Under the pieces are notes generated by a model, which worked only from the letters and a program-made list of their open reading frames with translations, did no database searches and had not been told where the DNA came from. This document shows positions 2,645-39,206 of a DNA stretch of 64,000 nt, piece after piece. Source of the DNA: Yuukianura sp. NJ FZ-2021. Its lineage: Eukaryota. The stretch spans positions 6,882,001 through 6,946,000 of the forward strand of contig CM102285.1 in NCBI GenBank assembly GCA_046563655.1, written 5' to 3'. The position numbers were made by a program, and so were the translations under genes. Positions within the stretch are counted from its first letter, which is position 1, and each line of letters starts with the position of its first letter.

Positions 2645-2677
2645 TATTAAGTAGCGAAGCTACTTATTGGTTTGACA

Positions 2678-2711
<34 letters not shown>

Positions 2712-3030: not shown

Positions 3031-3180
3031 GCATCTGATTTTTTAAATTTTGAATTTTTCTGAGTACCGGTGTTGCCCGCCTGATATATTCCCATAGCCT
3101 CAAATTTTTATCAACGTTTTTCCGTTGCACTCAAGTTGACAAATAGAATGGGTCTTGTATTACTAATTATGGCCCTAACC
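3031..3180. repeat. Partial, slightly diverged 224-bp satellite unit (left edge of array)
   Basis: Matches the last ~150 bp of the 224-bp unit, ending TATGGCCCTAACC. Confidence 0.9.
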
Positions 3181-3183
3181 AAA

Positions 3184-4175
3184 CAAGGTAGGGCAATGCT
3201 CAAGGGTTGAGCACAGGTCTTCTGGAGGGAGTTGCCAATTGATGCGACTTAAACCGGCCTGCCTCAAAACTGTAGAAGAACTGAGAAACCGTTTTCATGT
3301 AGCGGATGTACCAAAACGTCGCTCAAAATTTTCAGCGCGGATTTGAGGTCCTCTTTTGTGCATGCGTTGCACCAAAACTGGATCGCCAACGGCACTAAAA
3401 TCATGTTCCGGTTTTGCGCCCCAAAATATTTGCACTAAATTGATGTTCTTAATTTGTTGAGCAGGATGCACATAATGTATTATCGGTGTTGCCGTGGCAA
3501 TGTACTTATTAGCGAAAAGAGCGTGAACCAAACGGCGTCAAAATAATGATATCGAAATTTAGCTTTGTGCATCATGCACAAAATTGAACGCTGAGGAGGA
3601 TGAGTCGAATATCCTTTCTTTTAAATCAAAATTGGTTCATGTAAATGCACAACTCAACGTTTATGTATAGTTGTTGGTCATAAGTGTGCATCATGCATGC
3701 ACAAAAATGAATCGCTGGCTCGAGGGGTCGGATATCGCTTTTGAAAATCGAAACTATAAAAATTTCTAGTAAATGCAACTTTGACCCCTGTTGTGCACCA
3801 TTCACATATTACACATTTAAGCCGGATTTTCTACCCTCTGATCAGTCTTAATTTAACAACGTAATTAAACATACTGCCAGAAAATGACCAGATCAAAACT
3901 CCGTTGTTTATATATATTTTGAGTGCAATCGAAACCAAAACAGTTTTGCCGAGCCACGATACTGCGGGTACGTAAAGTAGCCGCCTGCTTCTACGTTGTT
4001 AATTTAACACTTTGAGTGGAATATAGACCTACTGAAAACACTTGAGGCAAACATAACCCCCCGAACAGAAGAGGGCTTATGTTTCAGTGCAAAGAGTTCT
4101 AAAAAATGAACACACAGACAAAGTCGTATCAATAGTCTTCTTCAGCACGTCGTAGACGTGCGTCTCCAGAAGACT
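3184..4175 (-). mobile_element. Non-autonomous Helentron (HINE/DINE-1-like) family A, copy 1
   Basis: Minus strand: 5' subTIR AGTCTTCTGGAG with internal inverted repeat and short GTCY tract; 3' subTIR CTCCAGAAGACC followed by stem-loop TGCTCAA-CCC-TTGAGCA; flanked by T runs; 3' end shared with the autonomous Helentron at 23901. Confidence 0.85.
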
Positions 4176-4401
4176 AAAATTGCCATATCTCGCGAATTTT
4201 CGCTATAAGAGCCTAGCGATATAAGAGTTCACGACTGCCTCGTTTGAGCATTCTGATTTTTTAAATTTTGAATTTTTCTGAGTACCGGTGTTGCCCGCCT
4301 GATATATTCCTATAGCCTCAAATTTTTATCAACGTTTTTCCGTTGCACTCAAGTTGACAAATAGAACGGGTCTTGTATTACTACTAATTATGGCCCTAAC
4401 C
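4176..4401. repeat. 224-bp satellite, single unit
   Basis: One unit with a 3-bp insertion, between HINE copies 1 and 2. Confidence 0.9.
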
Positions 4402-4404
4402 AAA

Positions 4405-5352
4405 CAAGGTAGGGCAATGCTCAAGGGTTGAGCATTCGTCTTCTGGAGGGAGTTGGCAATTGATACGGCTTTTGACCGGCTGTCCGCAAAGCGTTCAAGA
4501 AAAACGTTAAGAAACCGTTTTCACGAGATTTATGGAACGAATTGCACGGAAATGCGAAAAAACCGTTTGCATAAAAATGTTGTGCAACTTGAGCTCTGAA
4601 ATGTTTTCATTCTCTTCAAAATTATTTTGATGGACAATATTTTGACATCGAATTGTTCTCAAGTGTGTACAAGAATAGAATGCCCTTAAATCTGTTCACG
4701 TAAATTCACAAGTATTCGGATGTAATCCCCATTCTAAAAGATGTTATGTGCAGTTGTTCTCCAGTATGCACAAATTTTGAAATAACAACGTCCTTTACCC
4801 AGCGTCAAAATAACTGCACAATTTTACATTCATGTGCAATAACTGTGCAACATGCACGAAACTGAACGTTGAGGTTCAGTGGTCCAATATAGCTTTTTTA
4901 AATCAAAATTACGAAAATTTGTTGCAAAAGCAAATTTGAACCTTGCCAATCACTGTTTGCATGTTACGAATTTAAGCCGGATTTTCTACCCTCTAATTAG
5001 TCTTAATTTAACAACGTACCTAAACATAATATCAGAAAATGAGAAGATCAAAACTTCGTTGTTTAAATATATTTTGAGTGCAATGCAGACCTAACACAGA
5101 AATTTTGAGGACTTAAGAAACTGCAACGCGAAGCAGCCGCATACTTTGACGTTGTTAACTTAACACTTTGAGTGCAATGTAGAGGTAGAGAAAACACTTG
5201 AGCCATACATGACCCCCCGACTGCGATAGGGCTAATGTTTCAGCGCAAAAGATACTAAAAAAGCGAACGGACAGACAGACAGACAGACAGACAGACAAAG
5301 TCGTATCAATAGTCTTCTTCAGCATGTCGTAGACATGCGTCTCCAGAAGACT
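4405..5352 (-). mobile_element. HINE family A, copy 2
   Basis: Same termini, (GACA)n on plus at ~5270-5297, internally diverged from copy 1. Confidence 0.85.
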
Positions 5353-6471
5353 AAAATTGCCATATCTCGCGTATTTTCGCTATAAAAGCCGACCGATATA
5401 AGAGTTCACGACTGCCTCGTTTGAGCATTCTGATTTTTTAAATTTTGAATTTTTCTGAGTACCGGTGTTGCCCGCCTGATATATTCCTATAGCCTCAAAT
5501 TTTTATCAACGTTTTTCCGTTGCACTCAAGTTGACAAATAGAAAGGGTCTTATATTACTAATTATGGCCCTAACCAAAAATTGCCATATCTCGCGTATTT
5601 TCGCTATAAAAGCCTAGCGATATAAGAGTTCACGACTGCCTCGTTTGAGCATTCTGATTTTTTAAATTTTGAATTTTTCTGAGTACCGGTGTTGCCCGCC
5701 TGATATATTCCTATAGCCTCAAATTTTTATCAACGTTTTTCCGTTGCACTCAAGTTGACAAATAGAAAGGGTCTTATATTACTAATTATGGCCCTAACCA
5801 AAAATTGCCATATCTCGCGAATTTTCGCTATAAAAGCCGAGCGATATAAGAGTTCACGACTGCCTCGTTTGAGCATTCTGATTTTTTAAATTTTAAATTT
5901 TTCTGAGTACCGGTGTTGCCCGCCTGATATATTCCTATAGCCTCAAATTTTTATCAACGTTTTTCCGTTGCACTCAAGTTGACAAATAGAAAGGGTCTTA
6001 TATTACTAATTATGGCCCTAACCAAAAATTGCCATATCTCGCGTATTTTCGCTATAAAAGCCGAGCGATATAAGAGTTCACGACTGCCTCGTTTGAGCAT
6101 TCTGATTTTTTAAATTTTAAATTTTTCTGAGTACCGGTGTTGCCCGCCTGATATATTCCTATAGCCTCAAATTTTTATCAACGTTTTTCCGTTGCACTCA
6201 AGTTGACAAATAGAAAGGGTCTTATATTACTAATTATGGCCCTAACCAAAAATTGCCATATCTCGCGAATTTTCGCTATAAAAGCCGAGCGATATAAGAG
6301 TTCACGACTGCCTCGTTTGAGCATTCTGATTTTTTAAATTTTAAATTTTTCTGAGTACCGGTGTTGCCCGCCTGATATATTCGTATAGCCTCAAATTTTT
6401 ATCAACGTTTTTCCGTTGCACTCAAGTTGACAAATAGAAAGGGTCTTATATTACTAATTATGGCCCTAACC
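5353..6471. repeat. 224-bp satellite, 5 units
   Basis: Head-to-tail copies with period 224. Confidence 0.95.
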
Positions 6472-6474
6472 AAA

Positions 6475-7522
6475 CAAGGTAGGGCAATGCTCAAGGGTTG
6501 AGCATAGGTCTTCTGGAGGGAGTTTGCAATTGATGCGACTTAAACCGGTCTGCCTCAAAACTGTAGAACTGAGAAACCGTTTTCATGTAGCTGATGCAAC
6601 AAAACGTAGCTCAAAATTTTCAGTGCATATGTGGGGCCTTTTTGTGCACAATTGCACCAAAATGTGAAAAAACCGTTTGCATAAGAATGTAGTTCAGCTT
6701 TAGTCCTGAACAGTTTTCACTCTCCTGAAAATTATTTTGATTCACAACATTTTTGCATCAAGTTGTTCTAAGTATGAACACAATTAGAAAATTCCATTAA
6801 ATCTGTTCATATAAATGCACAATTATTCTGATCTAATCACCATTCTAAAAGATGTATGTGCAGTTATTCTCCAGTATGCACAAATGTTGAAATAACAAGG
6901 TTCATTACCCAGCGTCAAAATATCTGCGCAATGTGACACTTATGTGCATCTACTTATAAGTGTGCACGAAATTAAACGTTGAGAGGCAGGTGTCAATTAT
7001 AGCTTCTTAAAAATCAAAATGCATGCACTATGTGTTAAGTCATGTCCATAAATAACAGAGTCGAATATCATTTGTTTAAGATCAAAATTATAAAAATTTC
7101 TTGTGAATGAAAATTTCAACCCTGCCAACCACTATTTAAGTATTACGAATTTAAGCCGCATTTTCTACCCTCTAATCCGTCTTAAGTTAACAACGTAACT
7201 AAACATACTGCCAGAAAATGACCAGATCAAAACTTCGTTGTTTAAATACATTTTGAGTGTAAACGAAACCAAGATGTGTTCGCCATGCCACGAAACTGCG
7301 GGTACGTAATGTAGCCGCTAACTTATACGTTGTTAATTTAACACTTTGAGTGCAATTTAGAGGTAGAGAAAACATTTAAGCCGTAGATAACCCCCCGACT
7401 GCGATGGGGCTTATGCTTCAGCGTAAAGGGTACTAAAAAACGTTACGGACAGACGGACAGACGGACAAAGTCGTATCAATAGTCTTCTTCAGCATGTCGT
7501 AGACATGCGTCTCCAGAAGACT
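6475..7522 (-). mobile_element. HINE family A, copy 3
   Basis: Same termini and microsatellite; interior shares segments with copy 1 and with copies 2/4/5. Confidence 0.85.
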
Positions 7523-8417
7523 AAAATTGCCATATCTCGCGTATTTTCGCTATAAAAGCCGAGCGATATAAGAGTTCACGACTGCCTCGTTTGAGCATTC
7601 TGATTTTTTAAATTTTAAATTTTTCTGAGTACCGGTGTTGCCCGCCTGATATATTCCTATAGCCTCAAATTTTTATCAACGTTTTTCCGTTGCACTCAAG
7701 TTGACAAATAGAAAGGGTCTTATATTACTAATTATGGCCCTAACCAAAAATTGCCATATCTCGCGTATTTTCGCTATAAAAGCCTAGCGATATAAGAGTT
7801 CACGACTGCCTCGTTTGAGCATTCTGATTTTTTAAATTTTGAGTGTTTCTGTATACCGGTGTTGCCCGCCTGATATATTCCTATAGCCTCAAATTTTTAT
7901 CAACGTTTTTCCGTTGCACTCAAGTTGACAAATAGAAAGGGTCTTATATTACTAATTATGGCCCTAACCAAAAATTGCCATATCTCGCGTATTTTCGCTA
8001 TAAAAGCCGAGCGATATAAGAGTTCACGACTGCCTCGTTTGAGCATTCTGATTTTTTAAATTTTAAATTTTTCTGAGTACCGGTGTTGCCCGCCTGATAT
8101 ATTCCTATAGCCTCAAATTTTTATCAACGTTTTTCCGTTGCACTCAAGTTGACAAATAGAAAGGGTCTTATATTACTAATTATGGCCCTAACCAAAAATT
8201 GCCATATCTCGCGTATTTTCCCTATAAAAGCCGAGCGATATAAGAGTTCACGACTGCCTCGTTTGAGCATTCTGATTTTTTAAATTTTGAATTTTTCTGA
8301 GTACCGGTGTTGCCCGCCTGATATATTCCTATAGCCTCAAATTTTTATCAACGTTTTTCCGTTGCACTCAAGTTGACAAATAGAAAGGGTCTTATATTAC
8401 TAATTATGGCCCTAACC
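7523..8417. repeat. 224-bp satellite, 4 units
   Basis: Period 224. Confidence 0.95.
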
Positions 8418-8818
8418 AAACAAGGTAGGGCAATGCTCAAGGGTTGAGCATAGGTCTTCTGGAGGGAGTTGGCAATTGATACGACTTTTAGACCAGCTGT
8501 CCACAAACCCGTTGAAGAAAAACGTCAAGAAACCGTTTTCACGGGATTTATGCAACGAAACGTCGCTCATAACTTTCAGTGCAGATGTGGGGCCTTTTTG
8601 TGCACAATTGCACCAAAATGTGAAAAAACCGTTTGCATAAGAATGTTGTTCAGCTTTAGCCCTGAACCGTTTTCACTCTCCTGAAAATTATTTTGGTTCA
8701 CAACATTTCTGCATCAAACTGTTAGCAAAATTTTTTTTAATTAAAAATTTATTAAACAGAATTCACAAACACCTGCCTAGGGCAGGTTGAAAAGGTTTAG
8801 AGTATATATTGAGAAAAG

Positions 8819-11800
8819 TTAGAGGTAAAAAATTTCGTCCAATCCTTTCCCCGGGGGAAGAGTGCCAAGGATTGATGCGGAGTTGCCACGTTGAATGGCG
8901 ATGCTAATCCGTTGAAGCAAAAAGTTGGTGGATCGGAGTTCACCGGTGACCTCGGCAAGACGTTGACCAATTGACCTGATGAGAATTAGTCCTTCGGCTC
9001 CGAAGACTCCCGAAGTTTCAACAGCAATGATGGAGACGATGAATTGATGATTTAGGTCTTGATACACTTTGTGTTTCTGGATTTCAGCCAAAGCGGCAGG
9101 ATAGCCACTTGAAGAAGAGGAAATGGAGAGGTACGAGTTGGCATAAGTGTCTCGGCAAGTGACGTCCCACACCAAACAACGTCCAGTATTCCAAGGTATC
9201 AAAGTGATGCCGTCGGGGCGTTTTCCATCAGAACGAGAACAACCTGGAGGTTCTTTCAGGCTAGGGACTCCGGCTGTTTGAAAGGCTCGAGCAATAATAT
9301 CGTTGATTGAACCATGTCTTGAGTGTCTTCCTGCACTTTTCGGACAACTCAGCCCGTGAAGACCGTCTTCGTTAACAGTTGCACCACAGCGACATTTGTG
9401 GGGTAGACATAAGTTGGTGCCAAGCCGCAAGGAGCACGAAATTCTGAAGCATTCGTTGGATAGAAGAGTCCCCAGTTGTGAAGAGGGTAGGGCCTTCAGC
9501 CAATCACCGGAATGAGCAGCAGCGGCAGCAATTAGTCTTGCTTTGTCAGTCAAAGTGGTGGAGTTGTTCAGCAGACTGGTGTAAATTTTCGATGATTTTA
9601 ATATCTCCCATTCCTTCTGAACTTTGTGATTAGATGGAAAATCAAAATCGTTGGACCATTTGAAAGTTGCTAAGTCGTACGATGGATCGAAAGGCGATAG
9701 GTTACCAGGTAGGAAGGAGGTGATTAGGTCTGCGCAGCTAAAGATTGAAGCCAAAAAACAGAGTGTAGCGCAATCGTTAGCTTGGCGGATTCCCAAACCT
9801 CCTTGTGCCACCGGCAGAGATGTTTGAATCCAGGCATTTTCAGAAAGGCTTATGTTGAGAATTTTTTCCAAAACTTTACGAAGAGAATCATCGTAGTCTT
9901 TCAGTAGGTCTTCTTCAAGAAATGATGGTGCGCAGCGAAGGAAGTATGTCAGTCTTGGAATCGAAATTGAAGCTCTTAGTAAGAAGAAAGCCACGTGAGT
10001 CGGAAGAGCTAGCAGCTTAGACGAAAGTCTGTTGAAATCGTCGGTCTTCATCTTCAAGATTCGTCGTCCAGAAGCTTTGGATAATGGGGCTCCGAGTAGT
10101 TCGGCGTCTTCTTCATTGCAGACTCGTATATCAGGTGCGAACGAAAGAAATGAGCTAGAGATGGCTCTGGACTCCATTTCATCGCCACCGATGACGATGA
10201 TCTCACATTTCTGTGTGTTAAGTTGTAGGCCAAAAGATGCTGCGTTGGTGGTGATATGCTGCAGATACTTCAGGACTATTTCAGGCTTGTCGGCAATGGT
10301 TGAATCGTCAAGATACCATACGTTAAACTCTGACTGGATTGCTGTTGCCAGTGGCTGGATGGTGATGGCGAAGAGGGCGGGACCGATCGGATCGCCTTGT
10401 TGGACTCCAAGGCTCGATTTGATTTTGGAAGAACCGTAAAATAAATTCGAGTCTGATGAATAAGCTTGATGGATGAAGTTATAGAAGTCGGGAATGAGAG
10501 ATTTAACAGAATCTAGCATTTTATCTCTTCTGATGAGGTTAAAGGCGTTCTTGAAATCAATCTTGAGCATGACCTTACTGGAAGAATGTGGAGAATTGAC
10601 GTAGATCCTAGCGGCGTGGGCTGCAGCTTCAGAACCGTTGTTGACTCCTACCCCAATTTGTACTGGGCTCAGGTATGAGACGATGTCTTTCATTGATCTC
10701 GATAAGACAAGCTTTGATGCTATCCGGCGCCAGGTCCATCCAATCGCGATAGGGCGGATCCCACCTTTTTTTTTCTGGAGTGCAATTAAAGAGGCACCGT
10801 AGAAGATCGGACGGATTACTTCAGGGATGGTGTTATTAATGATGAGGTTTGCAAGCTTCGTTATGGAAGACAGAAGTTTTTGACCGGAATCGCCAGTAAT
10901 TTTTGAAGTTAGCTCTTTCAGTACTTGAGGTCGCAGAGAGTCGAGACCTCCGGCCGAACCATTCGGAAAAGAAGAGATTGATTTTAGCAGTTCGAGTTCG
11001 TCGAAGACAACTTCAGATGATTGTTGACGATCTGGAAACTGGAGTGGTACTGGATGAGGAGGATGTAATCGTTCAAGAGCGTCTAATGTAGAAGAATCTT
11101 CATTGGCCATTGAGTCATCGGAACATAAAATACGAACTGCACCGTGAATGTCTCCATCAGCAAGTTTAGATTGAATAATGTGGGACTGAATGGCTGGATT
11201 TGATTGTGGAGTGCTTGAAGTTTCCAAGATTAACGTTGAAACGTTGAGAGCCGAAGAAGGTGACAAGGTGCAGATATTGGATTTTACCCAGGAGGTGAGG
11301 TTGGTGACACGGTCGGCCTTCTTAGGTAGACGAAACGCGAAGAATGGGAAAAGCAAGAGGTTTGACCATGACTCGGCGGAATTAGTTGAAGTCACTTCAT
11401 CAATGAAGTCTGAAAGCCTGGACGCGGCAGTGGTCCTGGCACCTTTAGGAACGTGCTTCATCGTGTGTGTCGATTGTTTGAGTTTTGCGAGGATGCTTCC
11501 TAGGTCTTCTTCTGTGGAATTGCGAGCAGGTGAAGAGCAAACATCCTTCCAAGCAATGCCAGAGTAGGACTGTTCAGAATGACGGCGACCTCCGGCACGA
11601 ACTGTCGACATTGAAGGGAATAACTTTCGCAGTTTGGTACCGAATGTGGTGTCAACGACTGGACGAATGTTGAGAGAGTTGCAAAATTGATGGTATTTGG
11701 ATTTGACGTCTAATTTTCGAATTGAGCCACTGGCGGACGAAATGATGTTATCAGCAATCCATTCATCTGTTATTTTGCGATTCTGGAGTGTTCTAGTAAG

Positions 11801-12577
11801 AGAAGGAGTATTGGAAACGTGTTGATTGGTAATTGGGACTGAGCATGAACTTGAAGCCATAACATTGATTGGAGCTGATGCAGCACGGCAACCGAAGTCA
11901 TTTGACGCTGGAGCTGGCACAATACAGGAACCGGAGTCATTTGGAGATGGAAATGATTCAATTGCAGCTGGGGTTGAGTTAATGCAGAAACCGGAATCAT
12001 TTGAAACTGGAACTGACTCCTTTGAAGTTGGAGCATAGTCATTTGAAGCTGGAACTGATTCAATACAGGAACCGGGATCATTTGAAGCTGGAACTGACAC
12101 AATACAGGAACCGGGGTCATTTGAAGCTGGAACTGATTCAACACAGGAACTATAGTCGTTTGAAGCTGGAACTGATTCAATACAGGAACCATAGTCGCTT
12201 GAAGCTGGAACTGATTCAATACAGGAGCCGTAGTCATTTGAAGCTGGAACTGATTCAATATAGGAACAATAGTCATTTGAAGCTGGAGCTGATTCAATAC
12301 AGGAACCATAGTCATTTGAAGCTGGAACTGATTCAATACAGGAACCGTAGTCATTTGAAGCTGACGCTGGAATGATGATGAAATCACTTGATGCTGGAAC
12401 GGATGTAATACGGGACCCGGAGGAACTTGATGCTGGAACTGGTGAAGAAACTGCATTCTGGGCTGGAGCTGGTGACACTTTAGAGATTGTTTGCACAGAT
12501 GAAGAATCAGGAGCTGGAGTCAAGGAGATAGATGTTGATTTCATTTTACTTCGATTTTTTAATTTTCGTTGAGTCAT
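8819..12577 (-). CDS. Single-ORF retrotransposon protein (~1252 aa): 13-aa repeats, RFX-like winged helix, reverse transcriptase, Cys/His knuckle, PD-(D/E)xK RLE
   Basis: Uninterrupted ORF (track starts at GTG 12712, first ATG 12577). RT motifs GIRPIAIG, KIDFKNAFN, GVQQGDPIGP, WYLDD; CRCG...HGLSC...RHSRH; RLE KRPDG...VWDVT...AEIQK. Confidence 0.92.
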   Translation of the reverse strand: MTQRKLKNRSKMKSTSISLTPAPDSSSVQTISKVSPAPAQNAVSSPVPASSSSGSRITSVPASSDFIIIPASASNDYGSCIESVPASNDYGSCIESAPASNDYCSYIESVPASNDYGSCIESVPASSDYGSCIESVPASNDYSSCVESVPASNDPGSCIVSVPASNDPGSCIESVPASNDYAPTSKESVPVSNDSGFCINSTPAAIESFPSPNDSGSCIVPAPASNDFGCRAASAPINVMASSSCSVPITNQHVSNTPSLTRTLQNRKITDEWIADNIISSASGSIRKLDVKSKYHQFCNSLNIRPVVDTTFGTKLRKLFPSMSTVRAGGRRHSEQSYSGIAWKDVCSSPARNSTEEDLGSILAKLKQSTHTMKHVPKGARTTAASRLSDFIDEVTSTNSAESWSNLLLFPFFAFRLPKKADRVTNLTSWVKSNICTLSPSSALNVSTLILETSSTPQSNPAIQSHIIQSKLADGDIHGAVRILCSDDSMANEDSSTLDALERLHPPHPVPLQFPDRQQSSEVVFDELELLKSISSFPNGSAGGLDSLRPQVLKELTSKITGDSGQKLLSSITKLANLIINNTIPEVIRPIFYGASLIALQKKKGGIRPIAIGWTWRRIASKLVLSRSMKDIVSYLSPVQIGVGVNNGSEAAAHAARIYVNSPHSSSKVMLKIDFKNAFNLIRRDKMLDSVKSLIPDFYNFIHQAYSSDSNLFYGSSKIKSSLGVQQGDPIGPALFAITIQPLATAIQSEFNVWYLDDSTIADKPEIVLKYLQHITTNAASFGLQLNTQKCEIIVIGGDEMESRAISSSFLSFAPDIRVCNEEDAELLGAPLSKASGRRILKMKTDDFNRLSSKLLALPTHVAFFLLRASISIPRLTYFLRCAPSFLEEDLLKDYDDSLRKVLEKILNISLSENAWIQTSLPVAQGGLGIRQANDCATLCFLASIFSCADLITSFLPGNLSPFDPSYDLATFKWSNDFDFPSNHKVQKEWEILKSSKIYTSLLNNSTTLTDKARLIAAAAAHSGDWLKALPSSQLGTLLSNECFRISCSLRLGTNLCLPHKCRCGATVNEDGLHGLSCPKSAGRHSRHGSINDIIARAFQTAGVPSLKEPPGCSRSDGKRPDGITLIPWNTGRCLVWDVTCRDTYANSYLSISSSSSGYPAALAEIQKHKVYQDLNHQFIVSIIAVETSGVFGAEGLILIRSIGQRLAEVTGELRSTNFLLQRISIAIQRGNSASILGTLPPGKGLDEIFYL
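11978..12361 (-). repeat. 39-bp coding tandem repeat (PASNDYGSCIESV)n, about 9-10 copies
   Basis: Repeated TTTGAAGCTGGAACTGATTCAATACAGGAACC.. on plus strand. Confidence 0.9.
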
Positions 12578-13560
12578 ATTTGTTGCTATGGAGATGAGTT
12601 GAAGGATCCGCTGGTGTTGAAAACTTAGATAGTTGACGGTGACTGGACTTCCAAGTGACAAAACAGGACCGGACAGGCTGAACTGGCAACGTATTTTCTT
12701 GAAACCTGTCACGAGTTGATCAGTAGACGAAGTGCTTTAGGACGATATGAGCAAAAGTTGGGTAGATCACAAATTAATGTCTTAAAAAACTGGAAAATTG
12801 AGGAGCAAAATTTCGTGTTTTCCAAACTTTTGTTTTGGCATAATTGTTAGCAAAATTATTTGGTGGACAATTGAATGGCTTCGCGGAACAATTATTATTG
12901 TTCTCCAGTATGCACAAAATTTGAAATAACAACGCCCATTACCCAGCGTCAAAATAACTGTACAATTTTACATTTGTGGAATAAGTGTTCAACATGCACA
13001 AAATTGAACGTTGTGGAGTAGGGATCGAATATAGCTTCTATAAAATCAAAATCGGTTCAAATAAATGCACCATGTGTTAAATTAAGTGCATAAGTTATAA
13101 ACTCGAATATCCCTTGTTTATAATCAAAATTACGAAAATTTGTTGCAAAAGCAAATTTGAACCCTGCCAATCACTGTTTGCATGTTACGAATTTAAGCCG
13201 GATTTTTACCCTCTAATTAGTCTTAATTTAACAACGTACCTAAACATAATATCAGAAAATGAGAAGATCAAAACTTCGTTGTTTAAATATATTTTGAGTG
13301 CAATGCAGACCTAACACAGAAATTTTGAGGACTTAAGAAACTGCAACGCGAAGCAGCCGCATACTTTGACGTTGTTAACTTAACACTTTGAGTGCAATGT
13401 AGTGGTAGAGAAAACACTTGAGCCATAGATAACCCCCCGACTGCGATGGGGCTTATGTTTCAATGGAAAGAATCCTAAAAAAGGTGACAGACAGACGGAC
13501 AGACAAAGTCGTATCAATAGTCTTCTTCAGCACGTCGTAGACGTGCGTCTCCAGAAGACT

Positions 13561-14007
13561 AAAATTGCCATATCTCGCGTATTTTCGCTATAAAAGCCGA
13601 GCGATATAATAGTTCACGACTGCCTCGTTTGAGCATTCTGATTTTTTAAATTTTAAATTTTTCTGAGTACCGGTGTTGCCCGCCTGATATATTCCTATAG
13701 CCTCAAATTTTTATCAACGTTTTTCCGTTGCACTCAAGTTGACAAATAGAAAGGGTCTTATATTACTAATTATGGCCCTAACCAAAAATTGCCATATCTC
13801 GCGTATTTTCGCTATAAAAGCCTAGCGATATAAGAGTTCACGACTGCCTCGTTTGAGCATTCTGATTTTTTAAATTTTGAATGTTTCTGTATACCGGTGT
13901 TGCCCGCCTGATATATTCCTATAGCCTCAAATTTTTATCAACGTTTTTCCGTTGCACTCAAGTTGACAAATAGATAGGGTCTTATATTACTAATTATGGC
14001 CCTAACC
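13561..14007. repeat. 224-bp satellite, 2 units
   Basis: Period 224. Confidence 0.95.
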
Positions 14008-14010
14008 AAA

Positions 14011-28933: not shown

Positions 28934-31900
28934 TGTAGCGTCTCGCACCGCTACTCCACCAGAAATATGGCCGCAGCCACGCCCTCAGACTCTCAATCAC
29001 TGATCAGCAGATCCCACACCTGCCCAAAGACCAAAACTCACAAAACACTGGAAACCACATCAGCGGTTAAATATATGAAATATATTTAATAAGCTGATGA
29101 AAATAATATAAGCAACTGAAAAAAACAACTAATAATATGATACTCTGTACATCTCTTCTCCATCCTCCTCTAACACCAAAACCAGACTGACTAACTCTAT
29201 ACAAATGCCTATCCTCGCTCGCTCCTCGCCTCTCTTCAAATCTACCGCGAGCCAACACATCATCTCACCTTGCCCCTATCCTAACACTCTACTAACGCTA
29301 TGGACGAGCAGGCGTCTCACGTTCCCCCTTCCGATGGATGGCGTTCCAGTCGAACCACGGGCGACATCCAACTGCAGCAGCTCCGCAGACGACTGCAACT
29401 CCCGGATCTCTGCAACTCCATCTCCATCGGCATCATCCTCACCGTCATCTCATCATGGACATCAGCGGAGTCTTCATCATAGTAATCGTCAACCGCAGCT
29501 TCGGATTCCTCCCTGATGATCCAACACGTCAACACTTGCACTTTCACTAACTTTCTCAAAATAAACTGGATTGGAGCCCATAAATGGTCTCCACTGCCAC
29601 TGCATTGCCACAAATTTTGCGACTCCACCTTCCATCACTTTATACGGGACAGTGAGACCCTCAACAGTCGAAATTGTAGACAATGAGCAACATCACACCA
29701 CAAACACATGGAAGCCAATGACTTGACTCCTTTCTGCTGCTACAGATTCTGAGTTCCACCTTCCTTCACTTTACGGGACAGTGAGACCCAAACAACTCAG
29801 AATTTGTAGACAGAAAACCGCAGCACTAACGAATTTTTAATTTTTTAATTGCTCGAATTTCGCGGGTATAAGACCCTGGACACACATAACTTCCAATAAT
29901 TTCACTCTCCAGCACTGCGACAAATTCTGTGTTCCTCCTTCCTTCACTTTACGGGATAGTGAGACCCTCAAAAACACAGAACGTGAAGCAGAACAAGCAT
30001 CACAATTAAACCGATTTTTTTTCAATAATTTCACTTCACTGAACTCGCACTCACTTTTTAAATTTTGATTTTTGAATTTGGAGGGAATAAGACCCTTGGT
30101 TTAGTTTTTAGCACCGTAGCACTATTAAGCTCATGATTTTGAGCTAGAGTAACGCCGCACTTCAGCAACGGGGCGGGGCGAACGCTCTCTTCTTGATTTT
30201 GAGGGATTGAGACCCTCCGTAGCATTTTTTGTATAAGCTCACTGTGTGGAGCTAGAGTAACACCGCACCTCAGCAACGGGGCCGGGCGAATGATCTCTTT
30301 AATGTGGCCTCTTGTGAGTCCAACATTCTGCAGTATCCCATCTTCGTGGTCATACAAAGTTTCGCTATAAACACTTTTCACTACACTTCTCACTGCACAT
30401 TTCACTTCCTCGATCCTTGGAATTTTGAAGCACAGTGCTGCCAGTCGACTTAGCAAGCAACTGTCTTCGGGAGAGTCCTGGTCGCAACCATAATTTCCAT
30501 CTTCTGACGTCGCTGGAGTCCAGGAAAACGCGTCCGCTTCCATGTACTGCCAGCCAATCTGATATTTCTGAGGAACTCTCCGTGTCTTAATTTCCGGATT
30601 CGACAATTTCCTTTTCATCATCACTACCATCACTTTCCAATAACACACTATGTACACTTGATTGGAGCCGCTAAAATGCGACTCACAAGATACTAACAAT
30701 AATTGTAACCCAACAACACTTTTTAACACACACAAATTGAATAATAGCCAAAACTTTTCACTTCTAACTTGTAACACCCACAAGTTTGTTAAATTCCTCC
30801 AAAAACGTAATTAATTTATCGTCACATAACTGTACACAAGGTTGCATGATGGACGAAAAGTCAGTTTTCATTTTTAGTTTAAATTTTCTGGATCAACTTC
30901 ACTATTTACATCATCACTTGTCTCTCCATACTCATTGTACCCTTCCGGTACGTTCTCTGAAACAGCTGATCGCGAAGATCCACTGGCCACACCCACTGGC
31001 ACTCGACACTGGAATTGCTTATGGCCGTAGCCGGAGCAACGATAACACACCACATCTTCAATCTTCATCGCAGTCACATTTTTAATCACTCTTTCACTTC
31101 CATGGGCACGAACACCTCCACTACGATTTCCACGTAACCCTCCATTTCCATAAAATTTTCTTGAATTGGAGCCCACGGTGTGGACTCCCGTGGGTTTTAT
31201 ATAATTTGCACGATTTGTGTTACACACATTTGCCACCGTAATGTCACGTGTCACTTTTCCAGAATTCCCAATTTGTGACGGCACTTGATCACAATGGTCA
31301 CATTTCTGCCTGACTTCAATTTCGCTCCTCATTTTTTCACTTGTGAAAATTTTGGATTTCACATTGTCACAACTTTGACATTTCTGGATCACTTCAACTG
31401 CACAGTCACTACACTTATTTACATCACACATATACACTACTGCCTCCTTCTTCATAGCGGCAGATTTTGGAACTATCAACATCGTTGGTGCTGAAGTGAA
31501 TTGAACATTTTCCAGGGCCGAAATGAGCGCCTGTGTGTGATCACTTCCACCACTCATGATTTTTAGCCGCAGCAGCGACTCCCTCTGCTAACTTTGTAAC
31601 TACCTCTTGCATGCTTTCCATCATCTTATGCATGGCCACATTCACAATTTTTTCTACATCACTTTTAGAATACACTGCCATGCTTCTTACTTGTCTGGTT
31701 TATCCTTATGCACTGTACACTTCACTGATTATCTTCTTTTCGGTCGTCGGTGAGCTTTGACATTGATTGGAGCCCACGAGTGGACTCCTAAATGACTATG
31801 AAAGCCATCGTAATGACTCTATACACTTTCACAATGAACAACCGCAGCTGATCAAAAACTTCTCAATTTTCTGCTCAATTGACTTTGACCCGGGATGACC

Positions 31901-32320
31901 TTACTGACCTTTGGTAGTTGTGTCACGAACGGTCGCCACTGTGTAGCGTCTCGCACCGCTACTCCACCAGAAATATGGCCGCAGCCACGCCCTCAGACTC
32001 TCAATCACTGATCAGCAGATCCCACAACTGCCCAAAGACCAAAACTCACCGAAACACTGAAACCACATCAGCGGTTAAATATATGAAATATATTTAATAA
32101 GCTGATGAAAATAATATAAACAACTGAAAAAACAACTAATAATATGATACTCTGTACATCTCTTCTCCCTCCTCCTCTAACAACCAAAACCAGACTGAAA
32201 ACTAAACTCTTTACAAATGCCGCTCCTCGCCTCTCTTCAAATCTACCGCGAGCCAACACATCATCTCACCTTGCCCCTATCCTAACACTCTACTAACGCT
32301 ATGGACGAGCAGGCGTCTCA
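28934..32320 (-). mobile_element. Non-autonomous gypsy-like LTR retrotransposon (gag-like ORF, no pol)
   Basis: TG...CA LTRs at 28934-29319 and 31942-32320; 4-bp TSD TTTT; PBS TGGCGACCGT (tRNA-Arg-like) after the 5' LTR; PPT GGAAGGGGGAA before the 3' LTR; removal restores the helicase frame MRQNEDIAF. Confidence 0.9.
30874..31557 (-). CDS. Gag-like fragment with CCHC zinc knuckle
   Basis: CYRCSGYGHKQFQC (CX2CX4HX4C) downstream of the PBS; probably degenerate. Confidence 0.65.
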   Translation of the reverse strand: MSGGSDHTQALISALENVQFTSAPTMLIVPKSAAMKKEAVVYMCDVNKCSDCAVEVIQKCQSCDNVKSKIFTSEKMRSEIEVRQKCDHCDQVPSQIGNSGKVTRDITVANVCNTNRANYIKPTGVHTVGSNSRKFYGNGGLRGNRSGGVRAHGSERVIKNVTAMKIEDVVCYRCSGYGHKQFQCRVPVGVASGSSRSAVSENVPEGYNEYGETSDDVNSEVDPENLN

Positions 32321-35300
32321 TTTTGTCGCATAGTTATGGTCAACTCATGCACAAGAAAATGATGCCATAGTGGCCGATTGAATAATGAACTAATGGAGTT
32401 GCTCATTGTCCCGTGAGTCAACGGCACAGCCAGAACTGGAGGTAGCTGATAGAAATCACCGACGCCGATGAATGAGATTCCCCCGAAAGGTGCAATCGGT
32501 TGAAACAAATCTATCAAGCGTTTGTCAACTTGTTCCAGTAAATGTTCGCCCACCATACTGATCTCATCACATATCGCAATCTGTAAATTAGTAATTTCAA
32601 TTAGACTCAGCTGTCAACAAAAAATATATGAAGGAATGTGATACCTTCAGTTCCGAGTAAGTTGAAGCCATCGTATTGGAAACATCAGCCGAAAGGGTAC
32701 CAGCTTAACGTTGGTTAACAGGTAACTGAAATGCTGTGTGAAGAGTGGAGCCTCCAATATTGAACGCCGCTTTCCCAGTTGGAGCGACAAGGAGGACACA
32801 GATTTTGTCCACATTACGGTTGAGGTCAGACCCAAAAATTCGGACCAATCCTTGGAAGAGTGTTTTGATGACATGGGACTTCCTTTCAAGTAGATGTGAA
32901 ATGGTATATTGTCATGCCGCTTCACTTGATCAAAAGTATGAAACACCAAATCCCTTTGTTCGTCGTTCAAAGATGCAAGTAGCGCCCAGTACTCATCATT
33001 AGAAGTCAACTGTGGATTCTTGAAGGTTTCAGCAAATGGTCGTCTTTCGTAGCTTCCAAAGTCAACTGCGTTAGTGCCTGAAGAATCTTCCAGACGATAC
33101 TCGCGCAGGTCTTCGGCCGAAGGCTGATTTTCATCCAAGTCATCATTCTCCGGTGGCTTAGCGAGAACTTCCTCCATCGCAATGTCAAGAATACAATCTT
33201 CAAAGAAATTAAATTCTTTTCTGCTTCTGGTGATCAAGTCAATATTTTCAGCTAGAATTTTCCGACAGTCCGTATTTTCCCCATACTCCTGCTCTTCGTT
33301 TCTCCATGGCTTATACAACATCAAGAGTTCCCGGAAAAAGTCGTCTGCATCTTTTTCTTTGTTGTAACGCACGAAGCGAATGACTTTTGCAAATTTCCTC
33401 TTTCGTACGTATCCAGAACCGTCTCTCAACTTATAAACTTCGGTTCCCGTTTCTTCTTTGGGAGATGCGTCGTCTTCTTCGTGTGGTTCGACTACCTGTT
33501 TTTTCATAGTTTTGGAGTATTCATACCATGCAGAGAATTGAGCAAGATTCAGTGATTCCAATGCAAGTGGTCGTTGAGCATAGTGGTCCGTCGGACTGTT
33601 GAAGAAAATATCTTGGTCATCTGGATCCAATTGTGACAGATCCGCTTGCGACTTCAACATTCTTGTACGATGGCTGGCCGGTCCGGTTTGTACAAAAACG
33701 CATTTTTCTGAAGAGTAGCTCATTGGCATTTGCAGAACATTGTAAGCTGCCTCCTGGGCCGAAAGTTCGCTGTTCAAGTTATGAGCCGCTCCAATAGCTT
33801 GTAGACTGTCTTTCAGAGGCGCATTACCTTTCTTCACTTCCTCTACCACGTTCCGCAACAGCTCCAGAAGCCCTCGATTGCTCTTATTGATGTAGTCGGC
33901 GATGTAACTGCAGCATGCGTACGGATCCAGAATAAATTGAATGTCCATGTTGGACTTTTGTAGCCGTAAAATCTTCTCATTGTAGGCGTTAATATAGACT
34001 TCGTTGGGTTTACGTCTCAAAAACACATGTGGCTTCTTCAATTTCGTCTGAATCACTTTTAAATACAATTGAAGATCGCAACCTATTGCTTCCAGAAATG
34101 TTTCGAATGACATTCCGGTGTCTAGAACTTGATTTTCCAAAAAATCTCGAATAGTTTTGTGTAATAACTTGAGATCCTTGAGTTGTGCTGTGTCTTCCAG
34201 AGGTACAAGGATCCGAGTTTTATCCATTGGAAAGAAGGGTATACCAAAACGACATTTGACTCCTTTGTTTGTTCGCTTGTGGCAAGTGTGTGTATGGCGA
34301 TGAGTCTGGAGAGATAGTAGACCAGTGATTGGATCTTCCGGATGGTAGTCAGTACGGCATGTTATCATACTGTCGATAAAAGTCGTTACGTCATCATGAG
34401 AAGCATTCTCCGAGTTGAAGGTTGGTGCGTCGGAGAGCCAGAACATGGCATGAACGTGAGGACTTCCACGGTGCTGGAATTCCACTCTTTCGTAGAAGTG
34501 TCGAATTCCACGATTACCAAAAGGTCCATTTCGGTAGCGATAAGTTGCTTTCAGCGCAGAGTAACGGTTGTCAAAATAACGGGCGCAAGTGATCGGATCT
34601 CTCTGGCTTAAAATTGCCTTCTCAGAGTTAGGTAACTGCTGAGCCTCCTCTTCAGAAATTTCGACGCCATCGAGAATTTTTTTCAACAACACCAGGGGCT
34701 CGTTCCACTTCAACTCTGCAGCACTAATGGTCACAAACAAAGTAGCAATTCCAAAGGTGCGAATCATGGCACGAACTTTGCTCCCCTCGTTCTTCCAGTG
34801 AGTGCCTGCGTTTCGGATCCCAGCGAGAACTTTATAAGCATTATCGTCCTTGATTAGGCCATCAACGTACGTCTGGTGCCAGACTTGAGCCGCTGTGGGA
34901 ACAATAAGCTCTCCATTTAATCTTCTCTTCCTGAGATGAATGTTCCGATTGCTGGCGATTCGCGAAACTTCTAGAGTCTTTGCCATGTACAATAAGAAAT
35001 CGATCGACTCTGCGGCACGGCGGTCCTTGTTTCTAGCAAAGGACTTGAACATATCAGCTCGCGATACTTTCTTCCCATCGAAGATAGGATTCATTTTTTT
35101 TTTCCGGCAAACAACTGCGGAAATGCCAAGAAGACAGCGTCTTCATCCAGAAGGACAGAAACAGGTCGATTTTCCTCCGCGGGAGCAATCCGAAGCCCAG
35201 AGCTGTCGGTCAACATAGTTTCGCTCGCAGTAGATTCCTCGCGATCGCCGTCGGGTGTTGCTTCGTTTGAGATTGTCAGAGAACTTTGAAGCTGACTCTC

Positions 35301-36006
35301 CAAGCCAGAATTGATTGAAGACAATTCTCGTTGCGAATCCGTGACCCAGGAATTAGAAAGTGATACCCCATGTTGTGAATATAAAGCTGATTGACATAAA
35401 ACTTTAGCAGCGTCAACTACTTTTTGTGGACGTATATTTCCGGACGTGTAGTTCTTCTCCACGTGCATCTGACGGGCAAGCCGGAGATGCAGGACTGAAT
35501 CGTCTGAAGGGAGGCGGGGCAGACTTTGAACAATATTTGTAACGGAAACTGGAACATTCACAATCCGTCCCTTCGTCTTCAATTGACCTGAAAATATTGT
35601 TATTAGCAAAACTAATCAAATTCTGAGCTTATTTCTGAACAATCGAACTGTACCTTGTGGTCCCTGGACAGCCCAAATCGCTTGAAAGACATGGTAGGGC
35701 GACACTAATCTGGCCTCTAATCGTGTCAAAGACGCTACTTCAGATGGTACGGCCGGGAACTGGAGTCCATTGTTTAAACTCAGTCGAGAGCTACGACCAG
35801 CTTTCACAGCAGGATGACAAGTAATACAAAAGTGACCTTCAACTTCGCTAGACGTGAAAATACTGTTCAGAAAGTTGTCATCAGATTGAGTACAGTCGAA
35901 TCGTCGTAGGTTTTTAATAGATTTCTTAAACCAAAGGCCACCTCAGTAGATACACACGTGTGATGGGCCTTCCCGGCATTTTTCTTCAAAGATTTCAACG
36001 ACAGAC

Positions 36007-36447
36007 TGTTGAAAATACCAAACAAGATTATGATTAATTACTTATTAGGATTCATGATTTGTTCTATATGACTAATTAAGGTCTAGGACTTTTTACTACG
36101 TAAGTAGGAACAGGAATTGGTCGCTTACAATTAATTAGGTTGTTAATACAAGGTTATTCTTTGTGTATAATTTATAAGTTAGAACCAGGAACCAGGAAAA
36201 TAGTTATAAGGTCAGTTCTGACGTACACTCTAGGAATAATAACGTTTTAGTTAATGTCACTAGGAAATGACTAGTGTAAAGTCTAGGTCACTAGGTTAGT
36301 ATAAATACTAGTTACCTAGATTGTTAGAATTAGTAGTGCCTCGTAGATTGTTGGTGTAACAACTTTATTTGTATTAAATAAAAACTCTCAGAAAATCCAA
36401 GTTCAGTTGTGTAAGTTTGTGTGGCGTTTTATTAAATAATTTCAACA
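36007..36447 (+). mobile_element. Solo LTR (BEL/Pao- or copia-like)
   Basis: TGTTGAAA...TTTCAACA termini, 5-bp TSD CAGAC (36002-06 / 36448-52), TATAAA ~36300 and AATAAA ~36377; removal restores PWESVVEIFEEKCREGP. Confidence 0.85.
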
Positions 36448-36484
36448 CAGACTCCCAGGGTTGATCATGAGTTTGTGCACGTAA

Positions 36485-36800
36485 TGTACGATGTGCTGCG
36501 GAGTCCCGTTGTTGTTCCAGTTGCCGGTAGTCTTCATTCTCCCGTAGTTGACGATGTGCTGCGGAGTCCCGTTTTTTGTTCCATTTGTCGGTAGTCTTCA
36601 TTCTCCCGTAGTTGACGATGTGCTGCGGAGCTACGTTGTTGTTCCATTTGTCGGTAGTCTTCATTCTCCCGTAGTTGACGATGTGCTGCGGAGCTACGTT
36701 GTTGTTCCATTTGTCGGTAGTCTTTATTCTCCCGTAGTTGACGATGTGCTGCGGAGCTACGTTGTTGTTCCAGTTGGCGGTAGTCTTCATTCTCCCGAAG
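36485..36800 (-). repeat. 63-bp coding repeat (RENEDYRQ(L/M)EQQR(S/D)SAAHRQL)
   Basis: About 5 tandem copies in the Rep N-terminus. Confidence 0.9.
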
Positions 36801-37095
36801 TAGATGATGAGCTTCAGTATTTCGTTCCCGTTCTTCTTGACGTCGCTCTTCATCTTGCCGGACAACTTGGTGAGCAATGCTGTCTCTGCCCTGTTCTTCT
36901 TGCCTGCTAGATTCGGCTGCCCGTAAGAACTGTCGTCGTTGCCTCGCTCTGGCTCGTTGTTGTCGACTTGACATAATTGTATCTACTAAAACAATGAAAT
37001 AAGACGGAATTCGGTATAGCTTGGTATTAAGAAATAAGATCAGAAACCATATTCTTACCCGATGAAACTGTATAAACTTGCGCCTAAGATTAAAC

Positions 37096-37562
37096 CAAGG
37101 CAACTAAACAAAATGACACACCGCGTTATAAGGTAGTCTCACGAGCCGTTTTTTAATTGTTTTTTGCGAAAGTATATAGTGGGGTGGTATCCAAGGCGAT
37201 AAATTCGTGCTAAAGTTGGTTGAGGTAACGATATGTGTTACTTGTAACCAGTGTTCGATATTTGGTACAAAATCAACTAATTTTCAATTGAGTTGTGATG
37301 AATTCTTAGTAACAACTATAAGCGTTAAACTTTTTCTTCCATTTTTCAATCCAAAAACCGATATAAACTTCAGGTTTGATGAGTGGTTACACTGGGTGGT
37401 TACAGTGAATTTTACTTTGTACTCCAACTGAAAGAAAACGTTTGCACAGAAACGTTAAAAACAAACAATCCACCCCACTATATACTTTCGCAAAAAAACT
37501 GAAAAAAACCGCTCGTGAGACTACCTTAGTAATGCGGTGTGTCATTTTGTTTAGTTGCCTTG
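37096..37562. mobile_element. P-element-like MITE
   Basis: ~90-bp TIRs starting CAAGG/ending CCTTG; 8-bp TSD GATTAAAC at 37088-95 and 37563-70. Confidence 0.8.
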
Positions 37563-39206
37563 GATTAAACGTATTTACTAAAAATATTACGGAGAACGGT
37601 AAATTAAACTATAAATTAAACACCTCAATGAAATATAGAGTTTAAGAATTGCCAATTTAACAAAGATCAAACAAAATTTGAAGGTCGAGGTTGAATAGTG
37701 TAATATGATTTGTTTAAATTCAAGATGATAACAACTTCCTAGACATGATTGATAGTAATAAACAACTTACTAAACAACCTGCAACTGCATTGTCCATGTT
37801 GCCATGACAATATATTAGAAAGCATAGCGTCAATCAAACAGTTTCAAAATAATGTTCAAAAACCGTTTTTATGGAATTGAAGCTCTAAAACGTCGCTAAA
37901 AATTTTCAGTGCGAATGTGAGATGCATGAGTTTGATGCATTGCATGAATTTGGTGCATGAGTTGCACCAAAATTGTTTTAGCAATTTTAATTGAACCAAA
38001 ATCATGTCATAGTTTTGAGGACCAAAATATCTTCACTGAATTGATGTTGTTAATTTGTTGTGCACAAAGTGCACAAAATTTAAAGTTTTGAAGAAGATGT
38101 CGAATATAGTTCTTGATTCATGTTCTTAATTTGTTGAGGAAGATTCACATAATGTATTGTCGATGTAGTCATGGCAATGCTCAAGGTAGTTCTCAAACCT
38201 GCACAAACTTTCAATTGTGTACATCATGCACAATATTGTACGTTGTGGGGTAGGGGTCGAATATCGTTTCTTGAAAATCAGAATAAAAAATTTCTTGTGA
38301 ATGCAAGTTTGAACCCTCCCATTCGCTGCTTACATATTACGAATTTAAGCCGCCACAAAACATAAGAACTTCGCGCTGGTGTAAATTTATTACAAAATTA
38401 ATATAGTAGCGTATAATGTCATGACGAATTGTTGGATTGTGATAGTCGACAATAAATTGTCCATGGGAATAGTAACTTACTATTTGGAGTATATAACCTA
38501 TACGTAACTGCATATATTAAACTTAAAATCCAAATTAATTACTTTAGTTTAGCACGAAAATCTTATCAACTTCTGTTCCTTTTCATAATTCAACCTTTAG
38601 TTTATGCAGCTCTATAATCGGTGCTTCTATTGGTTATCTTTATCCGAACTTTTGTGTCTAACATACTTATTGCAACTGGACGCACTTGAACTTTAAGGAA
38701 AGTAATAGCTTCTTGAAGATAAAACTTTAATAGATTTATTCCGAACGCTTCGCCTACTCTTCGATAATCTCTTTATGCATGAAGCCTAAGATTTGCAGGT
38801 GTGAAAGGATATTGACGTAACGTTGATGCCCGATAAGTGTACGGGAATTAGCGGGAGACTTCTAGTAAAATAAGTTATAATGTAGTGAATCACTAGGCAA
38901 ATAAAAACGTCAAAAATTGTGATGCGCGTTGAATTAAATTAAAGCCCACTAAACATGAAATAACCTCTATACACCTGATTGCAAACATATCAGTGAGTAG
39001 GTACACAAATCAAAAATTTTGAAACCGAAATTATGAAACTTAAATGAGACTGTCACAATGGTAACGTGATACGGTAAAACTATGGGTGCCACAAACGTGC
39101 GTAAAGAAGTGGAAAGCTTAATGCGTGAAGTCTTAAACTTATCCTCCAAGCACAGACTTCGACAAATTCCACCTCAAGTTGAGATTGTCGACACATAACC
39201 CAAAGG

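Follow-up and report, generated by a model that had tools for sequence, protein, structure and literature searches.

A 64,000-nucleotide (nt) window of Yuukianura sp. NJ FZ-2021 (GenBank assembly GCA_046563655.1, contig CM102285.1, positions 6,882,001 to 6,946,000) holds a tandem array of a 224-bp satellite unit in which six copies of one Helentron-type transposon family, here called family A, sit at the same base of the unit and in the same orientation. Our preferred account, which we hold with moderate confidence, is that several independent insertions into oligo-T, all in one favored run of five T's (T5), together with one local duplication, gave rise to this arrangement and that family A is an ordinary dispersed family rather than one dedicated to the array. 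The array inserts are canonical Helentron-type elements: five short nonautonomous HINEs (c1 to c5) and one decayed coding Helentron (c6). What the data show is how the elements are built and oriented, that family A is dispersed, and that the array is homogeneous. No new kind of transposon-satellite system is revealed by these observations; what remains is a local hot spot.

We searched the window for exact matches to both ends of the elements. The 30-nt terminus CAAGGTAGGGCAATGCTCAAGGGTTGAGCA gave six matches on the plus strand (at 3184, 4405, 6475, 8421, 14011, and 23901) and none on the minus strand, and the 16-nt other terminus, GCGTCTCCAGAAGACT, gave five matches, ending at 4175, 5352, 7522, 13560, and 15033. 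The site sequence GGCCCTAACC occurs 53 times. It continues as AAAAATTGCC at 46 empty sites, as AAACAAGG at six filled sites, and once as AAAATTTTTCTGAG, which reflects an internal 94-bp deletion in a unit near 20400. Read on the plus strand, an empty site has five A's (A5), while a filled site has three A's to the left of the element and four to its right (A3 and A4), and this was so at 6/6 left and 5/5 right junctions. On the minus strand the filled site reads TTTT-element-TTT and the empty site TTTTT. The array elements therefore have the oligo-T insertion without target duplication that is a trait of Helentrons and HINEs, and all six have the same position and orientation within the target unit. 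When the array was cut at a fixed anchor, we obtained 51 full units, and none was interrupted anywhere besides the shared insertion site. There were 44 units of 224 nt and 4 of 226 nt; the others were 229, 223, and 354 nt. The four 226-nt units each precede an insert and owe their length to the A3 and A4 of a filled site, against the A5 of an empty one. Most of the 51 units differ from the consensus at 0 to 3 positions, and the most diverged lie at the left edge. An earlier reading of this DNA, made from the sequence only, had proposed that six elements lie at one nucleotide of the unit, in one orientation and nowhere else in it, that the complete copies share one far terminus, and that the units are nearly identical. 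The terminus and junction counts, the five GCGTCTCCAGAAGACT ends, and the unit comparison bear out these three claims in turn.

The direction of the elements follows from their coding capacity. The only Rep domain in the window (PF14214, E 1.1e-18) is on the minus strand at 32647-35142; therefore, the elements run on the minus strand, and what the sequence-only reading took for their start is their true 3' end. In that direction each element opens with AGTCTTCTGGAG, with a subterminal inverted repeat (subTIR) 1-2 nt from the end. Behind the 5' subTIR come a hairpin, an inverted repeat (IR) of the subTIR, and then a (GTCT)n microsatellite. The 12-nt subTIR, CTCCAGAAGAC(T/C/G), is found at both ends of all five complete copies, giving 10 matches in five pairs where 0.15 was expected. 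At the 3' end, the complementary subTIR is followed by the palindrome ATGCTCAA-CCC-TTGAGCAT, which is 12 nt away from the terminus and forms in the minimum-energy fold. Published elements of the DINE-1/HINE type carry subTIRs of 12-15 bp, the 5' one 2-4 nt and the 3' one 38-60 nt from the respective terminus, along with a 5' IR, a microsatellite, and a palindrome located 8-35 bp before the 3' end; they insert into T-rich DNA, flanked by T's on either side and without target duplication (Thomas, Vadnagara and Pritham 2014, PMC4067079), and their coding partner is a Rep-helicase-endonuclease that shares the element ends (PMC4067079). Family A is like them in the subTIRs, 3' palindrome, 5' IR, microsatellite, T-rich site, and Rep-helicase partner with a putative endonuclease, and c1 to c5 all carry the subTIRs and have the palindrome within the 8-35-bp range. 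The recurrence of six copies at the same base of a tandem unit, as seen in the window, is not described in the parts of that paper considered here.

Apart from c4 and c5, the bodies of the five short copies are 72-88% identical in aligned columns, with 57-318 gap columns, while the termini of the array copies show 0-2 differences in 82 nt. Because c1 to c5 can be aligned over most of their length, they are variants of one family and not unrelated types. The count of at least four different HINE types made previously thus gives way to homologous, diverged variants of a single family, in which c4 equals c5 plus a 4.1-kb retrotransposon. Without that insert, c4 differs from c5 by 2 mismatches in 1015 aligned positions (99.8% identity).

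Family A is abundant and is dispersed at T-rich sites with unrelated flanks, both in this genome and under a second organism label. Six public runs were available: four from one sample of organism A, one from organism B, and one from a metagenome (X6, share 0.05). The data are contigs of runs X1 to X3 (organism A) and X4 (organism B) that were placed on positions 1500-5600 at 85% likeness; 3767, 2977, 1456, and 696 contigs from X1 to X4, respectively, were placed on these 4.1 kb. Summed contig depth is not a copy number and is used here as a rough guide only, and bins without cover (X1 and X3 at 4240-4376) were excluded as evidence. The element-end bin 3144-3280 exceeded the unit-only bin 5473-5600 in summed depth by 33-, 4.2-, 68-, and 55-fold in X1 to X4 (Table 1). 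Contigs that matched unique flanks exactly had a single-copy depth of 52-91 in X1, 86 in X2, and 16-19 in X3. By this rough guide, element ends are at about a thousand times single-copy depth, and the unit is at tens of times in X1 and X3 and more in X2. The unit depth is about what the 51 units of the window alone would give, and on these rough depths the 224-bp array may be small (tens of units) and confined to this locus.

Table 1. Summed contig depth over bins at element ends and in satellite sequence in four public runs
Bin	Content	X1	X2	X3	X4
3144-3280	element end	88,906	187,223	16,473	3,459
4103-4239	element end	218,029	275,000	25,915	4,458
5473-5600	satellite only	2,684	44,123	242	63
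3007-3143	satellite only	62	7,294	23	16

Contigs that leave the element ends point the same way. From the c2 end plus AAAA (5356), 17 X3 contigs continue into flanks that resemble neither the satellite nor one another (agreement, 0.45), and from the element end plus AAAA at 4179, seven X4 contigs run into mutually unlike, nonsatellite flanks (agreement, 0.5). A 503-nt X1 contig (record 7) has the other terminus with a nonsatellite flank in which only seven letters (AACCAAA) match the satellite. These loose-end observations are from 24 of 1493 rows. Exact-pattern scans for both family A termini gave 0 matches in metagenome, prokaryote genome, and viral contigs. Since family A is dispersed and the array is low copy, the array cannot be the dedicated home of family A. 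A family of the R2 type would have most of its copies in the one target; here the depth ratios of 4 to 68, rough as depth is, and the 17 plus 7 contigs with other flanks place most copies elsewhere. Most copies at unrelated T-rich sites was also the outcome that the sequence-only reading had named in advance as fatal to a site-specific family, and the depth ratios and these contigs with other flanks show that outcome. Its proposal of repeated targeted integration into a dedicated array thus survives in one part: repeated integration at one nucleotide is the most likely history, but the depth ratios and unlike flanks speak against a sequence-specific family and a dedicated array. A literature search returned no report of a target-specific Helentron or Helitron.

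The comparison of elements with their flanks argues for more than one insertion. The flanking 150 nt of satellite have 0-7 differing positions and up to 6 gap columns, against 12-28% difference in the element bodies with large insertions and deletions (indels). The interior of c1 at 3418-3554 has no counterpart in c2 to c5, and its summed depth is 25,613, 41,168, 4,355, and 1,400 in X1 to X4. Because this c1-only interior is deep in all four runs, c1 is a member of a dispersed subfamily and not a duplicate that diverged in place. Units adjacent to the inserts carry differing unit variants, and conservation along the element alignment is patchy, with no gradient from the junctions and with interior blocks as conserved as the ends. 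Near-identical termini would also fit active transposon lineages. One pair is different: a rare set of unit variants, 99/106/107, is found only in u7747 and u13785, the units ahead of c4 and c5, and because these two copies are also 99.8% alike, the pair probably arose by block duplication in the array. We infer at least three separate insertion events (c6, c1, and the c2-c5 group) and probably five.

In the history that we favor, family A would have entered the array several times, each time between T's of the only T5 run of the minus strand. About 50 identical good oligo-T targets side by side would have let repeated hits accumulate, and at least one pair (c4 and c5) would then have been made by block duplication within the array. 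Our best guess for the mechanism is that insertion is strand specific and picks the longest minus-strand T run, perhaps aided by the location of the site in the loop of a short inverted repeat.

Several observations weigh against this history. The variant 39G>T is present in only 4 of 51 units, one per inter-insert interval, and in three intervals it is in the second unit after the insert; this placing hints at an older block of an insert plus two units, which would fit a history of duplication. The identical termini could also be explained by conversion tracts running in from the satellite. A paired change in a hairpin (C-G to T-A) touches two CpG sites and is perhaps plain decay, and because two CpG sites are involved, we regard it as weak evidence for selection. 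In X2 the depth ratio, which is not a ratio of copy numbers, is only 4. Among the 24 of 1493 loose-end rows, none is at the true 3' junction, so an extended target motif on that side is possible. Finally, without a strand rule, the choice of a T run does not by itself explain 5/5 hits in one run.

A different history, which we consider unlikely, has only one or two insertions: unequal exchange would have copied blocks of an insert plus units, and conversion would have kept the units and element ends alike while the bodies drifted. The close likeness of c4 and c5 with the variant set common to u7747 and u13785, the occurrence of 39G>T once per inter-insert interval, and a recurring pattern of unit variants that marks recent block copying in the array are what this history predicts. 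It could also accommodate c6, which either decayed in place or arrived decayed, yet adjoins a unit near the consensus. However, conversion would have to leave flanks that differ by 0-5% beside bodies that differ by 12-28% with large indels, and the lack of a gradient from the junctions, with interior blocks matching the ends, does not fit this. In addition, the c1-only and other variable interiors are deep in the four runs, so the subfamily differences exist outside the locus, and simple duplication cannot relate a 14-kb coding copy to 1-kb HINEs.

The choice of this particular run depends on the strand. Per unit, the plus strand has one T6, three T5, and two T4 runs together with one A5 and one A4, which are T5 and T4 on the minus strand. 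The probability that five independent events all fall in one run is 7e-4 if at least two T's are needed on each side (14 cut positions) and 1.4e-5 if any TT is allowed. If insertions are on the minus strand only, it is 0.13, and T5 is then the natural choice. Since a restriction to the minus strand makes the choice of run unsurprising, the single orientation is the main thing to explain. We also examined predicted folds of the site. At the filled site, the last 8 nt of the element (GCCCTACC) are predicted to pair with the flank GGTTAGGGC, so that a hairpin loop would contain the true 3' junction (z, -4.06; a fold this good was reached by 0 of 200 shuffles). At the empty site, the T5 run is predicted to be in the loop of TATGGC/GCCATA, in a fold that does not stand out from shuffles (z, -1.0; equaled by 30 of 200). 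Both predicted features are leads, not findings. To our knowledge, little is known of Helentron target choice and cutting beyond a liking for T's.

These folds bear on a rival that we find doubtful, in which family A reads an extended target (sequence or structure) of which the unit carries an ideal copy, so that the array would be a preferred landing pad although the family lands elsewhere too. All 5-6 hits in one run and one orientation, with the low probabilities of the models that consider T runs only, would be accounted for in this way, as would the GCCCTACC/GGTTAGGGC pairing, the position of the empty T5 run in its loop, and the seven flank letters shared by one dispersed copy (X1 record 7). 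But the flanks on the true 5' side are mutually unlike, the empty-site fold does not rise above shuffles, the strand rule alone leaves the choice of run unsurprising, and the termini of the six copies are identical, so that there is no covariation. A specific form of the idea, in which the integration machinery would read a single-stranded site exposed in a hairpin loop and the last eight bases of the element (GCCCTACC) would pair with the target flank (GGTTAGGGC), appears similarly improbable to us.

The remaining rivals are both very improbable. In the first, rolling-circle read-through captured a flank, and Rep amplified the element plus 224 bp into the array. Family B elements, described below, do stand head to tail with directly abutting ends, so tandem forms occur in the genome; but neither element end shows similarity to the unit (best E 0.17), no element is present at 46 of the 52 junctions that lead from a unit into another unit or into an element (leaving aside the 53rd, with the 94-bp deletion), the unit-only bins are far shallower than the element bins, and the array starts inside the repeat slot of another element family. 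Rep-driven amplification of a captured flank, raised by the sequence-only reading as an alternative, therefore finds no support in a unit that is low copy and unlike the elements. The second, an assembly artifact in which repeats were wrongly stitched in a long tandem array, could draw on the finding of no contig bridging a satellite-element junction among 32 of 9424 pieces, but six base-identical junctions with differing bodies and differing neighboring unit variants are hard to get by misjoining.

The coding copy c6 is related to the short copies at its ends. Its first 65 nt are 91-95% identical to the HINEs, and further HINE homology is found in pieces near 37860-38352, where it breaks off at 38352, some 370 bp before the true 5' end would be reached. 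The missing ~370-bp true 5' end was not found elsewhere in the window. In a protein search, the best Rep relatives were only 39% identical and came from insects, spiders, rotifers, and molluscs. The closest, P0001 (39% identical), is listed with Rep, helicase, and Exo_endo_phos_2 and is colinear with c6 on the minus strand. Rep and a PIF1-like helicase lie in one gene in c6 (P0001 residues 20-1120 are colinear), though the gene is broken. Both an HUH motif (PHVH) and a two-tyrosine motif (YIADYINK) can be read, and the sequence where Walker A is expected is degenerate. The putative endonuclease region at 28178-27342 is 35% identical to P0001 residues 1120-1400. The window's own frame there scored below the Pfam cut-offs for Exo_endo_phos_2 and Exo_endo_phos (E 0.01 and 0.05); PF14529 and PF03372 are present in the relatives P0001 and P0011. 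The Rep-helicase-endonuclease frame is damaged by two in-frame stops, a 3.4-kb insertion, and two frame changes. With this frame broken and ~370 bp of its true 5' end missing, c6 is not the 14.5-kb autonomous copy it had been taken for. The 3.4-kb insertion (28935-32316, minus strand) has frames of 237 and 250 amino acids (aa), one with a weak CCHC zinc-knuckle match (E 0.0097). Toward the true 5' end of c6, at 36488-36813, a 63-bp tandem repeat (5.2 copies) stays open in two overlapping frames of the minus strand and has no family match.

The array begins directly to the right of a left module and body of a second HINE family, family B. The left module of this copy, B1, is at 2644-2712, its body extends to 3031, and the 224-bp array starts at 3032. 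Two homologues of B1 (43050-42701 and 45228-44937) lie on the minus strand and one (62061-62327) on the plus strand. Homology between B1 and a second copy, B2, runs to 3031 (with the motif CATCTTCACTC at 3016-3026), one base before the array. The matching point in B2 is 42658-42648, and its GC-rich tandem repeats, at 42629-42339, start 14 nt after the same motif. Because the array begins at the matching point of the B2 repeats, it sits in the central-repeat slot of family B. The minus-strand copies of family B consist of the body, then GC-rich tandem repeats, and then a right module ending in ACAACCGGTTTATT. Cg_HINE elements of the Pacific oyster are described as having a left module with a subTIR, an IR, and a GTCY/GTCK-type microsatellite (Vojvoda Zeljko et al. 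2020, PMC7492417), followed by a variable stretch of 10-500 bp and then tandem repeats, and related flanking modules are found with unrelated repeats (PMC7492417). B1 plus the 224-bp array likewise has a left module, a variable stretch, and repeats, and family B is like Cg_HINE, as far as the parts of that paper considered here describe it, in module layout and in that the repeats differ between copies (a 224-bp unit in one, GC-rich units of 24-47 bp in others). Going by this layout, there is about an even chance that the 224-bp array represents the expanded central tandem-repeat module of a family B HINE. Counting against this, a search of the window for the family B right module gave matches on the minus strand (41126-41090, 42133-42066, and 44520-44433) and none on the plus strand, and the 224-bp array is not followed by one. 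The right module may have been lost with the 5' end of c6, in whose truncation the right edge of the array disappears. Besides the missing right module, the window differs from the Cg_HINE copies, in the same parts of that paper, in having 51 units where the arrays there are short and in the invasion of the array by another HINE family.

Other family B copies form a head-to-tail cluster on the minus strand at 40200-45230, in which the 3' end ...ACAACCGGTTTATT abuts the next 5' end (AAGTAGCGAA / ACAATAGCGAA) and each HINE carries GC-rich central tandem repeats of 24-47 bp. The segment 2733-3006 is the most abundant repeat of the surveyed stretch, with a summed contig depth of up to 99,916 in X1 and 146,707 in X2. 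Its depth is ~100 times that of the left-module part (2459-2732), and therefore the body of family B is common to many more elements than is this left end.

The coordinates of these features are given in Table 2. Tandem Repeats Finder reported the 224-bp period in blocks between 5353 and 23900. The unit, used as a doubled query, had no similarity to c1-c4, c6, the flanks, or the rest of the window (best E 0.17). We rejected two candidate relationships of the unit. A diverged first unit at 2957-3030 is ruled out by 59 differences and the lack of a BLAST match, and that stretch is family B. Derivation of the unit from element ends, or a longer element ending inside the unit, is ruled out by the best E of 0.17 and by boundaries that fit the HINE geometry in the portion of the published description considered here (PMC4067079). 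The 354-nt unit at 20186-20539 is a unit with an extra 130-bp partial unit; its junction, CCAAAA/TTTTTCTGAG, falls within the A run targeted by the transposons, as though a 94-bp loss had occurred between two short A runs. In the block at 15034-23900, a variant order of 20T>A/111C>A/122G>A, then 27G>C/95A>G, then consensus and so on recurs at 15706, 18618, and 22332, from which we infer recent copying of blocks of ~13-17 units.

Table 2. Features of the window
Feature	Coordinates	Strand	Basis or state
Family B left module B1: 5' subTIR AAGTAGCG, complementary IR, (TGTC)8.5 microsatellite, 318-bp body	2644..3031	+	homology to other family B copies
Partial first satellite unit (unit positions about 73-224, plus 2 extra A)	3032..3183	.	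unit comparison
HINE family A copy c1, 992 bp	3184..4175	-	termini; 72-75% identical to c2-c5 in aligned columns
Single satellite unit, 229 nt, most diverged full unit	4176..4404	.	unit comparison
HINE family A copy c2, 948 bp, (GACA)7 microsatellite at 5270-5297	4405..5352	-	termini and alignment
5 satellite units	5353..6474	.	tandem-repeat and unit comparison
HINE family A copy c3, 1048 bp	6475..7522	-	termini and alignment
4 satellite units	7523..8420	.	tandem-repeat and unit comparison
HINE family A copy c4, 5140 bp (c5 plus nested retrotransposon)	8421..13560	-	termini and alignment
Non-long-terminal-repeat retrotransposon, 4112 bp, nested in c4	8733..12844	-	open frame, domain matches, poly-A tail, 13-bp target duplication TGTTAGCAAAATT
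2 satellite units	13561..14010	.	tandem-repeat and unit comparison
HINE family A copy c5, 1023 bp	14011..15033	-	termini and alignment
39 satellite units (39.6 unit lengths), variants in higher-order pattern	15034..23900	.	tandem-repeat and unit comparison
Protein-coding Helentron copy c6, 14.5 kb	23901..38352	-	true 3' end at satellite site, true 5' end truncated, gene decayed
Helicase C-terminal part and putative C-terminal endonuclease of c6, three frame segments	27342..28934	-	P0001 residues 889-1400, frames -3, -2, -3
3.4-kb insertion splitting c6 helicase	28935..32316	-	alignment gap to P0001
Rep (HUH) and helicase start of c6	32317..35142	-	PF14214; P0001 residues 20-891 align to 34932-32317

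The retrotransposon nested in c4 has an open frame of 1305 aa at 8819-12736, with an RFX DNA-binding domain (E 5.7e-11) ahead of RVT_1 (2.5e-19), and a domain search recognized no endonuclease domain in this frame. The element is apparently intact. Outside the array and both HINE families, a plus-strand frame at 46372-47115 has a rhodopsin-family seven-transmembrane receptor domain (E 8.5e-27), which marks the window as animal DNA.

R2 in 28S ribosomal DNA and CRE/SLACS in spliced-leader arrays are target-specific elements that occupy one position in one orientation and live almost only in their target, and they insert by reverse transcription primed at the target. Family A is like them in having one position and one orientation per tandem unit. 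However, it is mostly elsewhere in the genome, and its enzymes and mechanism differ. The IS200/IS605 elements (e.g., IS608) are bacterial single-strand HUH transposons with a Y1 transposase without helicase, hairpin ends, and a defined 4-5-nt target. They resemble family A in the HUH nuclease, the hairpin ends, and perhaps a strand bias and pairing between end and target, both of them no more than possibilities for family A. They are unlike it in their bacterial host, their Y1 transposase without helicase, and their defined 4-5-nt target. If the hairpin-loop reading of the site were true, it would turn a tandem array of sites into a strong strand-specific hot spot, and the pairing would give eukaryotic rolling-circle transposons their first guide-like target rule. 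A natural series of hits at one base and in one orientation, beside ~46 empty copies of the same site, makes this locus a compact setting for the study of target choice, and the locus clearly illustrates the colonization by one HINE family of what is probably the expanded repeat module of another.

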